Source: Octopus vulgaris (Eukaryota). From it: DNA of 64,000 nucleotides. The notes beneath the pieces were generated by a model. That model saw only the letters and a program-made list of their open reading frames with translations. It ran no database searches and was not told where the DNA came from. The stretch's first letter is position 1. The number at the start of each line of letters is the position of its first letter. Where the stretch lies: NCBI GenBank assembly GCA_951406725.2, contig OX597822.1:44020001-44084000 (forward strand). Reading direction: 5' to 3'. Both the position numbers and the translations under genes were made by a program. Shown here one piece after another: positions 412 to 47,232 of the stretch.

Positions 412-2679
412 CTAGCCCAGGGTGTTTAAACTTGGTCTAAATTTTTTGATGAAATACAGTTCTTTATTTTGGCGTTGCGTGAAGGTTGCGTTGTCACTGA
501 ATTTATAAAGCGGGTAAGTTGTAAATTTCGGATTTACATTTCCAGCACATCTATCTATGTGTCCGCTGACCGGTATTTTCCGGTATTCAGGGTTTCTAAT
601 TTGTGATTTATGCACCGCCATCCTGTTACGTAAGCTATTTTTTGTATGGCCTATATACTGCCTATTGTAGCCTGCGCATGTTATGACGTAAATTAAGTTT
701 TCTGATGCGCAGGTGAAGTTTGCTCTAATGGTGAACTGATGGCCTTGTTCTAGTATAAATTCTGAACCTTCTATCAAGATGACACAGATTCCGCAGTTGG
801 GCCTTCCACATTTTCTAACTGCTGGTTTTGTGGTTGATGTTGAGTGCAGTTTAGCTTGGGTTAAAATCCTTTTCAAGGATTTTGGTTGCCGTTTACTTTT
901 AATGATGGTGTGTGTTTCGAGGATCCGGTTCATCTTTGGGTCTCCCTTTAGTAGGGCTGTGCTTTGTAGTATGGTGCTGAAGGCCTCATTGTTGAGTGGG
1001 TTGTGTGTAGAGATGTAGGAAAGGGTTTTTAATTGTTCTTTCTTTTTTGGTTTTGTTTGTCTCAGGTCTTCTATACTTAATTTGAGTGCCCTTTGGATTG
1101 CACTGTCTATTAGGGGCTGTGGATAGTTTCTATTTGTGAGTGTGGTTCTAAGTTCCTGGAGACGTGTGTGTCGGGTGTTTGTGTCTGATATTATGGTGCA
1201 GATCCTTCTAGCTAAACAAAAAGGGACATTTATTCTAGTGTGTCGTGGGTGGCATGAATCAAAGGGTAGGTATTGTTTGGAGTCTGTCGGTTTATAGTAG
1301 ATATCTGTCTCTAGTTTTTTGCCGGTTTTCTTAATGAGGATGTCTAAAAATGGTAATTCTTTTTCGTTGTGATCCATCGTGAATTGTATATTATCATTTA
1401 TTCCATTTAATAGTATTTTAAATTCCTTAAGTTTCTCTATACCTTTGTCCCAGATGATGAAGCAGTCATCGAGGTATCTTTTCCAGTTGTTATGGATATA
1501 GGTGGCGAAGGTGTTTCCAAATTTCTCGAGTGTTATCTGGTAGAGTATTTTCTCGAGGTATCCCATCACTAGGTTGGCAAAAGATGGTGCAGTACGCGTG
1601 CCCATCGCTGTTCCCGATCTTTGTCTGTAGAAATTATTGTCAAAAATAAAGTAATTGTTCTCTATTATAAGGTCTTTGTTTATGCGAGTTGGGAGTTCAA
1701 AGGGGTAGTTATTCAGCCAGAAGGTGATCGCTTCTATTCCTAGGTTGTGAGGGATGTTAGAATAAAGATTAACTACGTCGAATGATACTAGAAGGGTTTT
1801 CTCATTGACTGTTTTAGGGAGGTGGTTGAGCATATCTATATCGTCTCTTACGTAGCTTTTGATGTGTTTTAGGAAAGGTTTAAGAAGTGTGTCTAAGAAA
1901 TTGCTGAGGCGGTGAGTCTCACATGCTGGCCCTGCTATTATCGGTCTAAGTTTAAGATCATTTGGTGAAGGGATTTTGATGAGTATATCGGTAGATGTTT
2001 TGCACGTTTCTCTAATTATTTGGCTTTTGTGTACTTTAGGGATACCATAGAACAAACTCGATTTGCATTTGAAGTTAGTGATGTATTCATACTCCTTGTC
2101 CGTGAGTCCTTCTCGGTATGTGTTGATTAATGTCCTAAGGTTATGCATTATTTTTTGCTGATTATACTGTTGGGCCCTTTCATAATACGTTTCATCTCTT
2201 AATAGGGATAGCACTAAATTTTTATAATCGTTTGTATTCATTATTACTATCGCGTTGCCCTTATCTGCCTCCTTAATTGTTATTGCTTTGTCTTCTCTTA
2301 GTTTGATGAGGTCGTTCCATTCTCTTTTGTTGAAGTTAGGGCTGTGTTTTTGTTTCTTGATGAATTGAAACGGGAAATTAGTTATGTAGTCACAATAGCG
2401 GTCTAAGGCTTTATTCTTTCCCTTGGTGGGGGTGTAATTGCTCTTGTTTCTAGCTATTGAATCCTCCTCTATTTGTTTGTCTTGAAATTCCTCGGTGAGT
2501 CTTAGTTTTCTGCAAAATTCCGAAATATCATCTTTCATTTCATAGTAATTAGAACGTTGTGGGGTTGGTGTAAATTTAAGTCCTTTGGAGAGTATGCTTA
2601 TTTCGTTAGGTGTAAGTTCTTTGTTTGAGAGATTGATTATCTTAATTACCTGAGGTTTCTTTTGTTTGTCCTTTGCCAT
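412..2679 (-). CDS. Penelope-like retroelement ORF: reverse transcriptase + C-terminal GIY-YIG endonuclease (Neptune/Naiad-like)
   Basis: 755-aa ORF with the N-terminal NLS..L.KGLKF.P motif, the PLE-diagnostic DKG (KEADKGNAIV), RPII, SFDVVNLY, GTAMG..AP and YLDD RT motifs, a CxxxxCxxC linker (CGRPNCGIC), LIY..TC...YIG nuclease motifs and the H/H residues of the CCHH finger. Relative to the copy at 31911 it has a Cys>Tyr change and a stop 3 codons earlier (LG* vs LGQEY*). Confidence 0.95.
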   Translation of the reverse strand: MAKDKQKKPQVIKIINLSNKELTPNEISILSKGLKFTPTPQRSNYYEMKDDISEFCRKLRLTEEFQDKQIEEDSIARNKSNYTPTKGKNKALDRYCDYITNFPFQFIKKQKHSPNFNKREWNDLIKLREDKAITIKEADKGNAIVIMNTNDYKNLVLSLLRDETYYERAQQYNQQKIMHNLRTLINTYREGLTDKEYEYITNFKCKSSLFYGIPKVHKSQIIRETCKTSTDILIKIPSPNDLKLRPIIAGPACETHRLSNFLDTLLKPFLKHIKSYVRDDIDMLNHLPKTVNEKTLLVSFDVVNLYSNIPHNLGIEAITFWLNNYPFELPTRINKDLIIENNYFIFDNNFYRQRSGTAMGTRTAPSFANLVMGYLEKILYQITLEKFGNTFATYIHNNWKRYLDDCFIIWDKGIEKLKEFKILLNGINDNIQFTMDHNEKELPFLDILIKKTGKKLETDIYYKPTDSKQYLPFDSCHPRHTRINVPFCLARRICTIISDTNTRHTRLQELRTTLTNRNYPQPLIDSAIQRALKLSIEDLRQTKPKKKEQLKTLSYISTHNPLNNEAFSTILQSTALLKGDPKMNRILETHTIIKSKRQPKSLKRILTQAKLHSTSTTKPAVRKCGRPNCGICVILIEGSEFILEQGHQFTIRANFTCASENLIYVITCAGYNRQYIGHTKNSLRNRMAVHKSQIRNPEYRKIPVSGHIDRCAGNVNPKFTTYPLYKFSDNATFTQRQNKELYFIKKFRPSLNTLG

Positions 2680-3148
2680 CGTGTGTCCCTGTTCCTGTGT
2701 GTAAGGTCTAAAAAATGGTTGGTGTAGTTATGTTCAAAACTACTATTTATCTGTCTCATGTTGTTATATATATATATACAGAGCAAAGCAACGTAGGTTC
2801 TAAAACCGATTTGTCCGAGAAACAAATCAATGTTACACATTACAATTAATGTAAAAGAGACTAATTCTTTTCTAATCCCCAGATGAATGCTTATATACTT
2901 GCTTACACTATATATTTTAGTATAAAAACGTTTATTCAAACTGTAAATAAAACACAAAAGTGTGTTATTTCATAGATGGGGAGCCCTCTTCCATAAAATC
3001 TTCTGGTAACTGTCTTTCGGGGGTTTCTTCCTTTCTCTGCCACTTTGGCTCTTTAAATCTTTCTCTGAGGTTTCTTTTATTTCTTCCAGTAAAAAACCTG
3101 TCCTATGTTATTAGTTGTTTTTGCCTGCGTTGTAAATCTTTTCTAAAA

Positions 3149-4060
3149 TGAGACATGACATTATCATTAAAAAGGTTTACAGCTGTATTTGCTACCACTG
3201 TATTAGGGTGATATTTTCCCCCACAAAACTTTGCATCTCATCCCATTTAGCACAAATTTCTTTGATTAAAGAACTTGAGACATACTCCTTTCTGTCCTCC
3301 TCCTCCTCAAAGACATTTCCTCAGCGAAAGTCTTTTGCTATTCATTTCGGTGGTAAGCTCAGTTCTGTGGTCTTCCACCATCTCCTCAACATTGTCACTG
3401 TTGACATCCAAGCCCATAGTTTTTCCCATAGAGACAATATCATCAACAATAGCAATCTGTTCGACAGCGGCAATACTTGTAGCTGTCTCAAATCCCTCAA
3501 AGCCTCCTCCTGATATACAGTCTGGCCAAAGTTTCCTCCGTGATGAATTCATGCTTCTGTAACTCACTTTGTTCCATGCATTATCAATAAGATTAACAGA
3601 ATTCAGAATAGTGAAATGATTTTTACCACAATTCTCTGAGAATCAACTGAGTGTCATTAGTGACTTGAAAATACTTTCGAAACAAGGCTTTTGTGTAAAG
3701 TTTCTTAAAGTTTGCAATGAGCTGTTGATCCATTGATCAGTAATCCTCCAAACCTGGAGGGTGAGCGGGAACATTGTCTAACACGAGAAGGCTTTTCAGT
3801 GAAAATTTTTTTTCTTGCACATATTTTTTAACATTCGGGACAAAAACTTCATGAATCCACTCAAAAAAAAATTGTCTGGTTACCTAAGTCTTCGTATTGG
3901 TCCGTATTATTTAGCCGTATTAATAGGCAATTTAATCTTCACAAAAGCGCGTCAAATATTGTGTTGGAACAGAAGTTCATTCAGTATTTCTATTGGTGAT
4001 GTTTAAACACGTGATTCCATTTCTGAAGTGACAAAGGCATATCATATGACATCTATATAT
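3149..4060 (-). pseudogene. pogo/Tigger (CENP-B-like DDE) transposase relic
   Basis: Minus-strand peptides LLVLDNVPAHPPG, MDQQLIANFKKLYTKALF, RKLWPD and MGLDVNSDNVEEMVEDHRTELTTE; frameshifts and stops. Confidence 0.85.
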
Positions 4061-4148
4061 CTCTTCTGAAAGATGGCGTTTCAGCACTTCTTTTTATATC
4101 ATTAGAGCGCGAATAGTTTATTTTTAATGTTTTTACGTTAATTGCGAA

Positions 4149-5680
4149 AATGGAGGAAGCTGAGACATACACTTTCGTCATGTCATGCCTTTTTTTTCCA
4201 AGAAAGTAAAAACGCTGTACAAACAGCAAAAAGGATATGTGTTGTTTATGGATTGGGTGCCATAGCTGAGAGAACAGTTCGTTGGCGGTTCATTAGATTT
4301 AGGAGCGAAAATTGTGAGGCTGGGTTGTGCGATACGCACGGCATATAACAAAACGTAACGTTTTTACTTTTTTGAATTTTCAGAAAATTTTGCTAATTTG
4401 TGTTCTGCACACATGGAAGCTTTCGATTATTCACCCCCACATCACCACCACCACCAAAAAAAGAAAAAAACAATGCTGCGTGATTTAAGGGCTATTAAGC
4501 TGTTATATTTAGCACATCACATGACAACATTAAACACGCGTCATTTGTTTGTCACTCTGACGTATTGATGAATTTTGATATCTTTCTCTTCATAAACATT
4601 TTCGGACTGTCCGTGTTTTAGATTGTAATTAAAAAAGTAAACTCGAAAAATTAAAAAAGAATTATTTTTTTAAATTTCGAAAAATTTTTTGTTCGTAGTC
4701 TTGTGAATTCCCGCGTGTGGTATATAAATTCGCAAAACTTTTCTGAAAATTCAAAAGAATATATAAGTTATGAGGTCTTATATGCCGTGCGTAAAGAAGA
4801 ATTCCACCAATTGTGATCTGGAAGACTGTGATTGTAGCGAAAGGCCTACGGTGATTGACGACGATCAAATCGAAAAACTTATCAAAATTAACCTTTATCA
4901 CACCACTCCTGACGTCGCGGAGATACTCTACATGTCTCATATGAGCCTTATAAGGTATTTAAAAATAGTTGATTTTAGTCACTCGCTATGATGTTTGGAT
5001 GTCTCATAATTTAACAGAACAGAAATTAAAGGACGGCATTTTCACCTGCGATTCTCTGCTCAAACACAACCAAAATGACCCATTTCGGAAAAGAACAATC
5101 GCAGGCCATGAAAAATGGATTATTTACAATACAACAATGAGGGGCCGGAAAACGTGAAATGAATGGCATTTAATCACTGCAATAGCCGGTCAGTAACTAA
5201 TGGTGATGCTCTATATCTGGTGAGATTGGAAGGCATTGTTTATTACAAGCTCCTTTCGTAAGTCAGACATTGAATTAAGATAATCATTGGTCCCAGTTAG
5301 ACCTATTAAAGGATGCAATCGTTGTGAAACCTTCCCGATTTGGTCAATCGGAAGTGTGTTGTCTTCCTTCGGGACAACGCTAGATCTCATATTTAAAGAA
5401 ACACGAGTAACGGCAGAAGCGGCAGAGAATTGTACAGCTTGATTAGGATATCACTGCCACATCCACTATTTTCAGCTCATCTCGCATCTTTGAATAACCA
5501 TTTATTTCGATACCCACAAACTACCCTTAATGAGAAGAATTTCACTTCTGTAGACGACAGTAAAAACCATTGATATAAGTCCAGGAGCCAGAAAGACGCC
5601 GAGTTCTGGAAAAGATGGGATTACAAAGATGCTTTGAATATAGCGAAAGATAGTGGGATACAGTATACAACACTTAATAA
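4149..5680 (+). pseudogene. Mariner transposase relic, interrupted by a MITE
   Basis: KNAVQTAKRICVVYG..RTVRWRFIRFRS (HTH), RPTVIDDDQI, VWMSHNLT (WVPHEL-like), IAGHEKWIIYN (TGDEKW-like), DNAR, and an HP.SA.LA...HLF YSPDLAP-like motif. Confidence 0.88.
4318..4808. mobile_element. Non-autonomous TIR DNA transposon (MITE) with 8-bp TSD, GG...CC ends (Merlin/MULE-like)
   Basis: AATTGTGA duplicated at 4310-4317 and 4809-4816; inverted repeat TACGCACGGCATATAA 4333-4348 / 4778-4793, plus a further IR (ttttgaattttcagaaaa); the mariner frame resumes after it. Confidence 0.8.
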
Positions 5681-5746
5681 CTGTATCCTTCACTTAGAAT
5701 AATTATAATGTGACAGGTATGGTTTACATGTGTCTACTTATTGGGA

Positions 5747-6080
5747 AGGTGCATGGCTCAGTGGTTAGAGCGTCGAGCTTACGATCGTGAGGTTGTGAGC
5801 TCGAATCCCGGACTGGGCTACGTGTTGTGTTCTTGAGCAAGACACTTTATTTCACGTTGCTCCAGTTCACTCAGCTGTAGAAATAAGTTGCGACGCCACA
5901 GGTGCCAAGCTGTATTGGCTGTTGCCTTTCCCTTGGATAACACTGGTGGCGTGGAGAGAGGAGGCCGTTATGCATGGGTGACTGCTGGTCTTCCATAAAC
6001 AACCTTGCCCGGACTTGTGCCTGGGAGGGTAACTTTCTAGATGCAATCCCATGGTTTGTGTCGTGACCGAAGTGGGTCTC
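5747..6080 (+). mobile_element. tRNA-derived SINE
   Basis: A box TGGCTCAGTGG, B-box-like GCTCGAATCC, followed by the CORE-like ttgagcaagacacttta...cactcagctgta. Confidence 0.8.
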
Positions 6081-10091: not shown

Positions 10092-10509
10092 TGTTATATA
10101 AATATTTGTTCTCTAACCGATAAATTAACTGCTGCTAACTATTAGCTGCAGGCTAGTTTTCTCGGGTCTCATCGCGCCAAAATTAGAGACATTTGAAATA
10201 TATATTTCAAATGTAATAGGCCGTACTCCATGCACGCAATATTTCGGTATCGTGTTGGCATTTAGTACAGCAAATTACATTTTATATGGGACCATGCTGA
10301 TGATGGCTGCACTTTTCCTTGCGGAAAATAACAGCCGAAACTGAATTTAGTACATGGGTAAATATTTATTTCGTATATTTTTCACTTGTTTATTGTTTTG
10401 GTTTTGTGTTGAGTTTGATCTGAGAACATGGACTTTTTGTGGAGAATGGCGATTTGACGTCTATATCTAGCATGTTGACTGTCCACTTTTTCGTGTTCAG
10501 TCCTTAATT

Positions 10510-17968: not shown

Positions 17969-19490
17969 CCATCCACCACATACAAAACGTAACATCCCAT
18001 ACTGCCTAGCCAGAAGAATTTGTACTATTGTAGAAGATGCAAATATCAGGAACAAACGCCTAATAGAACTAAGAGAATTTTTGCTCAAACAAAAATACCC
18101 ATCTCTACTTATAGAAAATGGCATACAGCGGGCTATAAAAATACCTATACAACAACTTAGGACAACCCAAGGAAGAGGAAAACAAGAACAAGTCATACCA
18201 TTCATAGTGACACACAACCCATGTCACCAGAATATCTTCAACATTGCCAAAGCAAACCTACCGATCATTGCCCAAAGTAATGAATTAAAAGACATAATCA
18301 AGGATCGAGCTATGGTGCTTAGTAAAAGACAGCCTAAAAACTTGAAAACATTACTAACAAAGGCAAAATTTAACCTCAGCAACAAAGACCAAACATTCAC
18401 GGTATCTAAATGCAATGATAGCCGATGTGGCACATGCCAATTCATACATACCGGTCAATATATAAACACAAAAACCGGGAAAATATTCACAAACGCGAAT
18501 ATGAACTGCAAAAGCAGAAATTTAATTTACTGCATCAAATGCCCAAATTGTGAAGAAATATATGTAGGTCAGACGGGAAACGCACTATTAGAACGCTCAC
18601 GTGTACACCGGCAACAGATTAGAGACCCAGAGGTCCGTCAGATACCTTTGAGTAACCACCTAGCAACATGTGGTCGGAAAATATATATAATATTTCCATT
18701 CTACAAATTACACAGCCCAAGTGAAATCGAGAGGAAAATCAGAGAAAAGAATTTTATTGATAAATTCGAACCCAAGCTAAATAAGCAATAATAATAATAC
18801 TTAGAGGTATTACTTCCACTGCTACGACCATGACCACTAACAACAACAACAATACTAAAGGTGATCAAGAGGAAGATAGCAGGAAAATTATCTTATTTAG
18901 GGTTAAAAGTTCTATTGCCACCACCATCACCACTAGCAACAATAATTAAGGTGCTGACAATGATGATGATGACAATTGAAATATAAAAATATAAAAATCT
19001 CTGACAAAGGATATTTACAACATTTCTAAAAATAACCCAACAATTGCTGCTTCGGCCAGGGTCAAGATACAGGACTCTTGACCTGTCCAACAAAGCGTGA
19101 TGCCTAAACCAATCAGCTCAACCAACCAATCAGCTTAAGTAATTGAGTGATACTACACACTGATTGGTCAGAATACAGTTTGCAAAACCTAGCACTCTGG
19201 AGCCTACCCAGCTGTATTTATAGCACAGAATCACTCATCTTGCTACAGTCAAAAATTGTGAAGCATGACTGTCAACACTACTACATGAACCCGAAGATTG
19301 CAGAATTCAATGCATGAAAGTACTAGTTCAATCAGAATGAATATTTAACATTCTACTATTTCATTTTATTTTATTCAATTATAATATATTATCTTATAAT
19401 ATATCATTATAAGATTGTAAATAAAACGTGAAAATCAGACAAGGTTGGAATTCTTTTTATTAATATATTCTTCTATACACAATCACACAC
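17966..19490 (+). mobile_element. 5'-truncated PLE (second Neptune/Naiad-like family) between (TA)n arrays
   Basis: Open frame 17967-18791: [57 protein letters not shown]; followed by a ~700-bp 3' UTR with CCAAT boxes and a hammerhead motif. Confidence 0.92.
19286..19330 (+). ncRNA. Minimal hammerhead motif in PLE 3' UTR (U4C core change)
   Basis: UGAAC-CCGAAGA-u-UGCA(gaauucaa)UGCA-u-GAAAG-ua-CUA-GUUCA; perfect 5-bp stem I, palindromic AGUACU stem III. Confidence 0.7.
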
Positions 19491-21994: not shown

Positions 21995-22088
<94 letters not shown>

Positions 22089-22146
22089 CAACAACAACAT
22101 CAAAAAAAGCCTTAGGAATGATAAACCAGTTTCGAAATTTCCCTAA

Positions 22147-22192
22147 GGCACCTGATGAAGGCTGGAGGGTATATCAGCCGAAACGTTGTGTT
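22147..22192 (+). ncRNA. Minimal type I hammerhead ribozyme
   Basis: GGCAC-CUGAUGA-a-GGCUG(gaggguauau)CAGCC-GAAAC-GUU-GUGUU; canonical core, palindromic AACGUU stem III. Confidence 0.85.
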
Positions 22193-22468
22193 AACAACAA
22201 ACCAGATTAGGATAAATATCCGTCAAATGTAAATAATGTAAATAATTTACATATTCAGTCAGTCCATTACTTATATAGGATTTATACATTTTCTTATCCG
22301 CTTTCAAACTTCCGTCTAATAATCACTACATTTTGTCGAATCATCAGGTACATACACCGATATTGGTGTTTAAGCGGGGCAGAGGCAGACACAAACAGGC
22401 ACATATACACATACATACGTGTATTCAGAAGTATTTACAGAATACTTGTATGTATGTATGTACGTGTG

Positions 22469-28214: not shown

Positions 28215-28636
28215 TTGTACAGTTCTATATTTAAGAGATGAGGAATTATGTACATTATTTCCATTATTTCCATTACTTACAATTGACGGATATTTGTCCT
28301 TATCTTGTTGGTTAACACAACGTTTCGGCTGCGGCGAGCTAGCAGAAGCGTTAGCACACCGGGCGAAATGCTTTGCGGTACTTCGTCTGCCGTTACGTTG
28401 TGAGTTCAAATTCCGCCGAGGTCGACTTTGCCTTTCATCCTTTCGGGGTCGATAAATTAAGTACCAGTTACGCACTGGGGTCGATGTAATCGACATAATA
28501 CCTATGCCTGTCCTTGTTTGTCCCCTCTATGTTTAGCCCCTTGTGGGTAATAAAGAAATTGATATACTCTCCAGCCTTCGTCAGGTGTCTTGGGGAAATT
28601 TCGAACCTGGATTCTCATTCCTAAGGTATTTTTCGA

Positions 28637-28690
<54 letters not shown>
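28215..28690 (-). mobile_element. Second copy of the (AAT)n-hammerhead element, interrupted by a family B SINE (28332-28560)
   Basis: GACAC-CUGACGA-a-GGCUG at 28572-28589 and CAGCC-GAAAC-GUU-GUGUU at 28314-28331; flanks match 22097-22250 and 21490-21540. Confidence 0.85.
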
Positions 28691-28695
<5 letters not shown>

Positions 28696-29312
28696 CGCCC
28701 TTGTGGCCAATAAAAGAATTAATAATAATTATTATTATTGTGTGTATATATGCGTGTGTGTATATGTTTGTGTGACTATGTGTTTGTCCCCCCAACATCG
28801 CATGACAACCGATGCTGGTGTGTTTAAGTCCCCTTAACTTAGCGGTTCGGCAAAAGAGACCGATAGAATAAGTACTAGGCTTACAAAGAATAAATCCTGG
28901 GGTTGAGTTGCTCGACTAAAGGCGTTGCTCCAATATAGCCACAGTGAAATGAATGAAACAAGTAAAAGAGTAAAAGAGTCAAATTGTGGATGCGATAAAA
29001 ATAACAGAGATAGGTTTACCTTGCGTGGAATATATAAGTAAGGATGTGTATATTCCAGGATCTATAGATTTCCATTTGTGTATCTAAAAGTTGCTTAAGC
29101 TCATCAGTTGGACCCAACACATAGTAAGCTATTTCGGAAATATTCATCATCTTACACTATGTGCGTTTTTACATTTGAATACCGCGCGTCATTCAAAAAT
29201 GAACATATCGTGAGTTATGAAAACAAACTATGAAATAATACACACACACGCACGCACACAGACACACAGACAGACAGACACACACACACACACACATACA
29301 AATATATATATA

Positions 29313-30470
29313 CATATGTAAAAGTAAAAAAATACAAACTGGAACAAGAACGTGAAACATTTAGAAGACGACACAAAAAACACGGACGGGACATTCGAAG
29401 CCCTCAATCTTCAGTCAAGAACCGGATCATCTTCGCAATTTCGGCTGATTAATCTCGAGATCGCTCCGACGCGGCCAGCCCCAAAGGAAAATCTAACCCA
29501 AGCGCATTAGATTCCTTGGAAGAAAGCCTCGAATGTATACAAAACAAGGATGGAAAACGGACGATGTTACACGAATAAAAATACAAAAATACGTAAAAAC
29601 AATAATGATAGCACGAATAAGAATACAAAAATACGTAAAAACAATAATGATAATAATAACAACAAAACCAGGACGTCACAGACAAGCGTCTTTTCGACAG
29701 GACGAGTAAAGTTTTGAGTTGGCGTTAGAAGATAACCTTAAGGCTACAGAGAAACAAACAAGTGTGTCTTGCCACAACGACTGCTGGACGCGAAAGGACA
29801 GCAGTCGGTGGCTGGTCACGTGAGGGAAAGAAAGAGGAAAAAGAGGGACAGATGAAGAGAGAAAGAAGGGGAACAAGGAACAAGGGAGGAGGAGAAGAAA
29901 GAGAGAGAAAGAGAAAGATCAAGTGGAGTGCAAAGTGTGAAAGGCAGAGAAATGTAGGAGAGGGGGGACAGATGAAGAGAGAAAGAAAGAAGGGGAACAA
30001 GGAACAAAGGAAGAGGAGAAGAAAGAGAGAGAAAGAGACAGATCAAGTGGAGTGCAAAGTGTGAAAGGCAGAGAAATGTAGGAGAGGGGGGAGAGAGACA
30101 GTGTTGTAGAGTCGTACCATGTGTTAAAGAATATATACTTACGTATAGGGTCAAAAAGGGGTACGCCGTCGCTTATGTACATATGTAAAAGTAAAAAAAT
30201 ACAAGCTGGGACAAGAACGTGAAACATTTAGAAGACGACACAAAAAACACGGACGGGACATTCGAAGCCCTCAATCTTCAGTCAAGAACCGGATCATCTT
30301 CGCAATTTCGGCTGATTAATCTCGAGATCGCTCCGACCCGGCCAGCCCCAAAGGAAAATCTAAGCCAAGCGCATTAGATTCCTTGGAAGAAAGCCTCAAA
30401 TGTATACAAAACAAGGACGGAAAACGGACGATGTTACACGAATAAAAATACAAAAATACGTAAAAACAAT
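29313..30470. mobile_element. Non-coding element with ~290-bp terminal direct repeats, flanked by (TA)n
   Basis: 29313-29602 is near-identical to 30181-30470; internal ~120-bp purine-rich tandem duplication (29842-30090); diverged partial solo copy at ~47035-47167. Confidence 0.85.
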
Positions 30471-30685
30471 ATATATATATACACACACTCTGGCCTTCTT
30501 TCAGTTTCACTTTGACAAATTTAATCACAAAACTTTGGTCGGCTTGGGTCTATTGTCAAAGGCTCTCGTCCAAGGTGCTACGAAAATAGATAAAACTTCG
30601 TAGCATGCAGCCAGGCCAATATTTCGGACCGCTGAAACCTACAAGATTATTTTTTTCATTCTATCTAACTTTATTTTCTTTTATG

Positions 30686-30801: not shown

Positions 30802-33181
<2,380 letters not shown>

Positions 33182-46993: not shown

Positions 46994-47033
<40 letters not shown>

Positions 47034-47232
47034 TGTAAAAATTATATATAAAGAAACAAGAAGGTGAAATACACAAAGGGATGAACACAGAAAACAGACG
47101 GGTCATTCGAAGCCTTTAATCTTCAGTCAGAAACCGGATCATCATAGCAAATTTCGGCTGATTAATTATATATATATTCATATATGTGTGTGTATGTGTG
47201 TATGTATGTATGTATGTATGTATGTATGTATG

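Follow-up and report, generated by a model that had tools for sequence, protein, structure and literature searches.

Each of the two end repeats of a non-coding insertion at positions 29307-30471 (minus strand) of the window, the 64,000-nucleotide stretch of Octopus vulgaris DNA that was analysed, carries what is likely a new form of self-cutting RNA, for which cleavage is predicted by a structural model. It is the recurrence of the same layout in published Naiads of five animal phyla that makes a new form likely. The earlier note had guessed at a ‘permuted or unknown self-cleaving motif', and the guess is supported in its first part: a complete hammerhead in a non-circular permutation was found, which points to a hammerhead and not to an unknown class. 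In the scheme of Eckert et al. 2023 (PMC10085705), hammerheads consist of three blocks, S for the site, G for GAAA and C for CUGANGA, and non-circular block orders, including SGC, are reported to cleave. On the minus strand of the element, the site AUC is followed by GAAA and then by CUGAAGA, that is, in the order S-G-C. The full explanation, a model in which we have considerable confidence, is a non-autonomous Penelope-like element (PLE) in partial tandem, each repeat of which carries a non-circular hammerhead predicted to cut minus-strand RNA after AUC (at C30326 and C29459).

Microsatellites abound in the window, which is animal DNA. The insertion, set in (TA)n, consists of 1.34 copies of an 867-nt non-coding unit and, taken in the minus-strand direction, would have its 3′ end at 29307. 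The repeats at 29307-29604 and 30174-30471 (298 bp each) are 97.65% identical, with seven substitutions, and flank a core of 569 bp (29605-30173); the repeats of ~290 bp, core of ~580 bp, spacing of ~870 bp and (TA)n setting given in the earlier note were thus close, with a repeat period of 867 and (TA)n at both ends. On the minus strand, the upstream repeat (30174-30471) is pLTR-like and is read as a 5′-truncated first copy, while the downstream one (29307-29604) forms the 3′ end of the full unit. The core holds low-complexity frames only, with no ORF of the Naiad kind (N-terminal GIY-YIG plus C-terminal RT), and the element is not filed as a Naiad. It contains a tandem duplication (29845-30096; ~130 bp, 94% identical, purine/pyrimidine-skewed) and a stable hairpin (29771-29812; −27.7 kcal mol−1 on the plus and −23.5 kcal mol−1 on the minus strand). 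Words that we take to be CRE-like and E-box-like flank this strong hairpin within 29660-29825, a possible internal promoter upstream of the minus-strand ribozyme.

An Rfam scan of 29300-30480, which the earlier note had proposed, gave no match up to an E value of 10, and the best 150 of the 303 Rfam matches over the whole window were microsatellite-driven. ARAGORN found no tRNA in the element. The core matched none of the three PLE copies in the window (best blastn E value 0.48, best tblastn E value 2.7). As for a 3′ end shared with an autonomous PLE, no similarity to the three PLE copies of the window was found, and the motif words are absent from the Naiad consensi by word search.

A diverged short copy lies at 47007-47166 (minus strand; 78% identical over 162 columns). 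The earlier note had placed a solo copy at ~47100-47167; the copy is real and keeps the words named there, but its extent had been drawn too short. It has the same 3′ end (plus-strand left end) as the element, and on the other side breaks into (TA)n just past the 3′ strand of stem II, so that it lacks the cleavage site and the G10.1 strand. Target-primed reverse transcription leaves such a combination of one fixed and one ragged end. Sense is thus probably on the minus strand, with 29307 as the probable 3′ end, as judged from three copies only. Going again by no more than these three copies, there is a partial tandem (pLTR), a 3′ end that stays fixed, a 5′ end that varies and a microsatellite as target; PMC8557442 describes 5′ truncation, partial tandems and insertion into (TA)n as typical of PLEs. 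A non-autonomous Penelope-like retroelement, inserted as a partial tandem, is therefore the likely identity of the insertion, and of the earlier label ‘LTR/pLTR-like', the pLTR half is the better reading.

The motif occupies 29391-29536 in repeat 1, with one C.C mismatch in a linker helix, and 30258-30403 in repeat 2, where all modelled helices are intact and the cut is predicted after C30326 (all strands and pairings given are those of the minus strand). From 5′ to 3′, its parts run P1 5′ strand, P2 hairpin, stem II 5′ strand (with G10.1), linker, stem III, AUC, stem I, stem II 3′ strand, GAAA, stem III, linker, stem I, CUGAAGA and P1 3′ strand. In repeat 1, P1 pairs 29522-29536 with 29391-29405 (15 bp) and closes the break between A9 and G10.1, and P2 (29481-29519) ends immediately before G10.1. 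The 5′ strand of stem II, GGCUG (29476-29480, G10.1 being 29480), pairs with CAGCC at 29443-29447, followed by the linker helix, a stem I-II interaction of 29468-29475 with 29421-29428. Stem III joins GCGAU (29460-29464) to AUUGC (29435-29439), where 29460 (U16.1) pairs with 29439 to give the A15.1-U16.1 pair of the NUH site. The predicted cleavage triplet AUC lies at 29459-29461, and the cut after C29459 (C17) is placed by analogy to hammerheads. Just 3′ of the cut, stem I pairs UCGAGA (29453-29458) with UCUUGA (29415-29420) over 6 bp. The core words CUGANGA and GAAA are present in both repeats, here as CUGAAGA (29408-29414; position 7 is A or G across the family) and as GAAA (29439-29442). 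Stems I (6 bp), II (5-6 bp, with G10.1-C11.1) and III (5 bp) all flank the core, and the stem I-II linker helix also closes.

With its 5′ strand of stem II upstream, the motif lets CUGAAGA reach G10.1 through the 15-bp helix P1 and the hairpin P2. As read from the letters and their modelled pairing, the motif is a type-SGC fold in which the chain is broken between A9 and G10.1 and P1 plus P2 bridge the gap. Several of these parts had been picked out in the earlier note, and all lie where it had put them: the closing stem with minus-strand G-U pairs (15 bp; three G-U in repeat 1 and four in repeat 2), the arm with CCAAGG, the stem GGCUG/CAGCC that precedes GAAA, and CUGAAGA. Likewise, the letters of GGCUG/CAGCC-GAAA are indeed the same in the type I hammerhead motif at 22152. 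The element does not fit types I, II or III (three nested stems, one junction), as its order is S-G-C and a type II reading leaves it without stem I.

Other foldings and matches were tried and rejected. Reading the motif as a type II-like dimer, in which GAAAUU serves as a minimal stem III, left G.A at the base of stem I and a short copy with no stem I. A plus-strand type I reading (CUGAUUA) failed on both core and fold score. Twister, HDV-like, hairpin and SECIS folds did not fit by eye when compared with their consensus features. Pattern matches in metagenome (three loci) and viral contigs (two) were all unrelated beyond the pattern.

The folding of the minus strand, as had been proposed, was borne out. 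For the 150-nt motif, z scores were −2.34 and −3.28, with four and none of 200 shuffles as good; the plus strand folded no better than shuffles (z of +0.13 and −0.26). In local folds, the pair probability was 0.86-1.0 for P1, P2 and stem III in both copies, and that of the linker helix was 0.93-1.0 in repeat 2 and 0.04-0.14 in repeat 1. Stems I and II received 0 to 0.01 in the nested model, which cannot score these crossing helices; their duplexes are at −4.5 and −6.8 kcal mol−1. In the fold of the 1165-nt read-through RNA, scaffold probability was 0.0-0.3, P2 excepted. In the linear 867-nt unit the ends are not predicted to re-pair, and closing P1 costs ~7 kcal mol−1, versus ~1 kcal mol−1 in the circle. 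With the crossing stems unscored and the scaffold weak in the long fold, the model thus leans on local and presumably co-transcriptional folding.

When block order and stem II partner were left free, a descriptor applied to both strands of the 64 kb gave three matches: the two repeats (S-G-C; stems I, II and III of 6, 6 and 5 bp) and one type I motif. When the linker helix was also required, the two repeats were the only matches within the window. This latter descriptor, whose limits of 4 bp per stem are looser than the observed stems, matched none of 300 block-shuffled windows, and 10 of 300 in which the core words were kept. When the core words were fixed and the rest was shuffled, from 87 to 195 of 20,000 sequences gave one site with stem I of at least 6 bp and stem III of at least 5 bp.

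To follow the family, sequencing contigs were used. The repeat or part of it was present in 20 of the 24 listed runs, under four organism labels, and contigs from four runs (one per label; 2,094-6,026 contigs each) were placed on 29310-29830. Summed depth, which is depth over contigs and no copy number, peaks at 29418-29453 and is ~100 to 1,000 times lower in the core; this profile suggests that the repeat belongs to an abundant family, of which the core found here is a minor form. Among the variants listed (at least 40), 15 places fall within 29391-29536, all of them outside stem II, the triplet and the conserved letters of the core. Four variants turn G-U into A-U pairs, at 29456 in stem I (98-99% of depth), at 29462 in stem III (66-83% of depth), at 29403 in P1 and at 29470 in the linker helix. 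The variant at 29471 mends the C.C mismatch of repeat 1. Those at 29472 (84-91% of a low depth) and 29528 (30-64%) break pairs, leaving A.C in the linker helix and U.U in P1, respectively, and the remaining ones are in linkers or P2. As regards covariation, the listed variants are thus one-sided only, plus the two breaks, and come without haplotypes. A subfamily is visible as a loose end before 29411 (31 contigs for X1 and 41 for X3). In its CUGANGA, position 7 is G and the six conserved letters are unchanged; AA replaces the UU of the window and could pair with the UU before P2, the flanks are changed, and the downstream GGCU is missing.

The layout recurs in Naiads, PLEs in which, according to Craig et al. 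2021 (PMC8557442), no canonical hammerhead but just ‘core' and ‘half core' words are reported, and which have a (TA)n bias. The last ~450 nt of 46 of the 54 consensi in the supplement of that paper were compared by eye, ends being assigned by their place before the next header (by metadata order, the consensi outside the comparison are Tgra, Pmar, Mcor, Mgal, Bpla, Mphi, Tama and Cmel). In 11 of the 46 ends, the layout of the window was found by eye, at ~100 nt from the 3′ end and with other stem letters; the comparison uses consensus sequences and carries no alignment statistics. These 11 (Bfor, 3_Chem, Amil, Aacu, Anas, 2_Movir, Plae, EuTe, Obim, Ovul and Esco) come from a ctenophore, cnidarians, an acanthocephalan, a crustacean and cephalopods. 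As Amil, Aacu and Anas are near copies, and so are Obim and Ovul, they represent about eight families in five phyla.

The helices of these ends are largely their own. For example, Amil has GGCUCC/GGAGCC as stem II and UAGGAU/AUCCUA as stem I; its stem III, linker helix and P1 are 12, 10 and 8 bp long, respectively, and P1 begins directly after CUGAUGA. EuTe has GACGCC/GGCGUC as stem II, GGAAG/CUUCC as stem I, a stem III of 10 bp and a hairpin of 8 bp that reaches up to G10.1. The helices of Obim are GACACC/GGUGUC, CUGCCC/GGGCAG and AUGGU/ACCAU. Some cases are imperfect: stem I of Bfor has 2 bp only, with UU opposite UU before P1, Aacu shows two mismatches, stem II of Esco is imperfect, and P1 and P2 of Plae are partly outside the view. 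By eye, the conserved core letters, G10.1-C11.1, A15.1-U16.1 and the NUH triplet are kept in all 11 while the stems differ wholesale.

Further Naiad ends follow other plans. Six nematode ends (1_, 2_ and 3_Nbra, Hcon, Hpol and Asuum) read by eye as complete type CSG with a stem I-II helix, a type so far reported from two metagenome sequences only. The spider ends Ptep and Smim have the S-G-C order, with stem I of 7-8 bp, stem III of 10 bp and a different stem II layout. In the ostracod ends 1/2/4_Dst, CUGACGA is enclosed by a helix and a site block was not seen. For 27 of the 46 ends, no complete motif was found within the last ~450 nt. The bivalve and hemichordate ends have no hammerhead words in view; several of them have another conserved stretch with CACCUGA(U/C), which could be another ribozyme or a further variant. 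Taken as a whole, it is probable that the SGC fold, with CUGANGA split from stem II and two added helices, is a topology outside the six block orders and the working ribozyme of many Naiads from comb jellies to cephalopods, that nematode Naiads use CSG instead, and that non-autonomous copies carry the fold at very high copy number.

Other readings of the element have to be weighed against the split-core hammerhead in a non-autonomous PLE. It might be of plain type SGC, with stem II formed by GGCU at 29399-29402, five bases past CUGAAGA, and the upstream helices inhibitory or unrelated. A 4-bp stem with G10.1-C11.1 can indeed be drawn there (−4.2 kcal mol−1), yet this GGCU is inside the 15-bp P1 with a probability of ~1 and is lost from the subfamily with the loose end before 29411. 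Moreover, Naiad ends of the same layout carry the stem II partner upstream, behind the hairpin, and the upstream strand alone continues into the linker helix as in SGC-1; we consider plain SGC quite improbable. Alternatively, a hammerhead-derived fold with no or negligible cleavage could have been kept as an RNA handle for the PLE reverse transcriptase. Animal PLE hammerheads cleave poorly in vitro (PMC4209133), the long-context fold disfavours the scaffold, 27 of 46 Naiad ends show no complete motif in view, and cephalopod Naiads are described as long inactive in PMC8557442. Against this reading, the element and the 11 Naiads keep all conserved core letters, G10.1-C11.1, A15.1-U16.1 and an NUH triplet with their stems changing, while position 7 varies freely, and such a fold is judged improbable.

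A TRIM or plant-type LTR retrozyme, small LTR elements that depend on an integrase, would account for near-identical direct repeats flanking a short core. It would also fit with TG..CA ends, whose absence had been claimed earlier and has to be corrected, as TG can be placed at 29317 and CA at 29600-29601. However, repeat identity extends beyond both, no primer site, polypurine tract or target duplication was seen by eye around the element, the short copy stops mid-motif at (TA)n as 5′ truncation would, and the ribozyme layout is common to PLEs, all of which render the LTR reading very unlikely. Scarcely credible is a chance meeting of hammerhead-like parts in a repeat with an unrelated stable fold. 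The model was found post hoc, the type II-like dimeric one having been dropped, and looser stem limits (5/4/4) are passed by 87-217 of 20,000 shuffles with fixed core words. By contrast, just 7-24 of 20,000 reach the observed limits, with stem II of at least 6 bp as well, and the 13-part layout was then recovered in independent published Naiads, by which chance is largely refuted.

Under the preferred reading of a self-cleaving, PLE-mobilized unit, the minus strand would be transcribed through both repeats, and cuts after C30326 and C29459 would yield an 867-nt RNA with 5′-OH and cyclic phosphate ends; the two predicted sites sit 867 nt apart, in agreement with the release of ~870 nt suggested by the earlier note. 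This RNA might then be ligated into a circle as in animal retrozymes, whose units are found in circular form and are efficient substrates of RtcB (Cervera and de la Pena 2020, PMC7229834). An autonomous PLE would provide its RT and GIY-YIG endonuclease in trans to nick (TA)n and copy more than one unit, so that the 298-bp repeat is left; in-trans PLE copying beyond unit length has been proposed for PLEs (PMC4209133). The TA-rich overlaps at both junctions fit copying of more than one unit into (TA)n. A template jump on linear RNA would leave the same DNA. Ribozyme layout and target would point to a Naiad as partner; the Neptune-type elements in the (TA)n of the window are the other candidates.

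The window itself carries a PLE gene at 412-2727 (minus strand), which encodes RVT_1 and then GIY-YIG in an open frame of 771 codons from stop to stop, and truncated PLE copies with GIY-YIG at 31911-33100 (minus) and 17970-18791 (plus). No relative of the PLE protein was found among 13 candidates from viral contigs. In their 3′ regions, the PLE copies have repeated words that are presumably CCAAT- and CRE-like and one that is presumably TATA-like. The RT-first order and the Cx4CxxC linker of these PLEs fit the Neptune/Nematis type, not Naiad, as described in PMC8557442.

Ordinary type I hammerhead-like motifs are found at 10297, 19291, 22152 and 29107. The descriptor classes that at 10297-10360 (plus) as a type I hammerhead, its stem III measuring 12 bp or more. 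That at 19284-19332 (plus), in the 3′ region of the second PLE, is type I-like; its core position 4 is C instead of U, and its stem III is palindromic. A minimal type I family adjoins (AAT)n at 22085-22260 (plus) and at 28560-28640 plus 28280-28331 (minus), the second copy apparently split by an insertion; its stem II letters are those of the permuted motif. A decayed type I hammerhead, whose palindromic stem III is 10 nt long, lies at 29050-29115 (minus), 200 bp from the element; the motif at 29069-29135 was considered as a second permuted case and rejected in favour of a decayed type I. At 30980-31150 (minus), in the 3′ region of the third PLE, there is a possible decayed C-S-G motif with a 7-bp stem I and a core one base short, and the last letters of this region resemble the 3′ end of the element.

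If the proposal holds, a natural hammerhead architecture would break the rule by which permutations are enumerated, namely that no long insertion stands beside CUGANGA; the block scheme of PMC10085705 assumed at most one or two extra bases there. Non-circular hammerheads, reported so far only from metatranscriptomes, metagenomes and one bacterium, would be common in animal genomes and no longer confined to anonymous environmental RNA. Naiads would not be the ribozyme-free exception among PLEs. Their spread without hammerheads was used in PMC8557442 to suggest that ribozymes are dispensable passengers of PLEs; if Naiad ribozymes are instead disguised, self-cleavage near the 3′ end would look like a general step of PLE retrotransposition. 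Furthermore, a class of animal retrozyme-like repeats would be escaping descriptor searches. In the literature covered, with few subscription papers in it, there is no report of permuted hammerheads in Naiads, PLEs or animal genomes, nor of a core split by helices. Going by their available portions, the preprint by Li et al. 2026 (10.64898/2026.07.22.740005) searched for type I only, PMC13725137 cites other variants just in general, and PMC10162972 holds no variant like the split-core hammerhead.

The closest known relative in form is type SGC (HRIMA-1; PMC10085705), with which the element has in common the order of site, GAAA and CUGANGA, a short linker from stem I to stem II, all core letters and a fourth helix that joins the far sides of stems I and II. 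In type SGC, however, the 5′ strand of stem II follows CUGANGA, whereas in the element it is upstream and P1 plus P2 bridge A9 to G10.1. SGC-1, going by the published oligonucleotides, has the same arrangement except for the 5′ strand of stem II and the linker strand, which are at the 5′ end in the element. A stem II strand one or two bases after CUGANGA, as defines the type, is not found; the nearest partner is five bases on, inside P1, and the best partner is upstream. Going by its modelled pairs, the element would work like type SGC yet fails the block rule of that type and is not a member as defined.

Among mobile elements, it resembles Naiads (PMC8557442) in (TA)n target, partial tandem, 5′ truncation and, for 11 ends, ribozyme layout, and differs in having no ORF and no word-search match to the Naiad consensi tested. 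Animal non-LTR retrozymes (PMC7229834; Li et al. 2026) are likewise non-coding head-to-tail units with one hammerhead each, derived from PLE pLTRs and with a predicted release of unit-length RNA. They have type I hammerheads and units of 150-450 bp, often in long arrays, whereas the element has an 867-nt unit in 1.34 copies and, in place of the type I hammerhead per unit by which non-LTR retrozymes are recognized, a pseudoknotted permuted ribozyme. The type I hammerheads of PLEs share with it the place in the pLTR, G10.1-C11.1 and the tolerance of an extra base between A9 and G10.1, and differ in their type I order and in a palindromic or absent stem III, by which a dimer is needed; with the full 5-bp stem III of the element, one copy should suffice. 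PLE hammerheads often have one extra base between A9 and G10.1 (PMC4209133), and where they have that base, the element has two helices.
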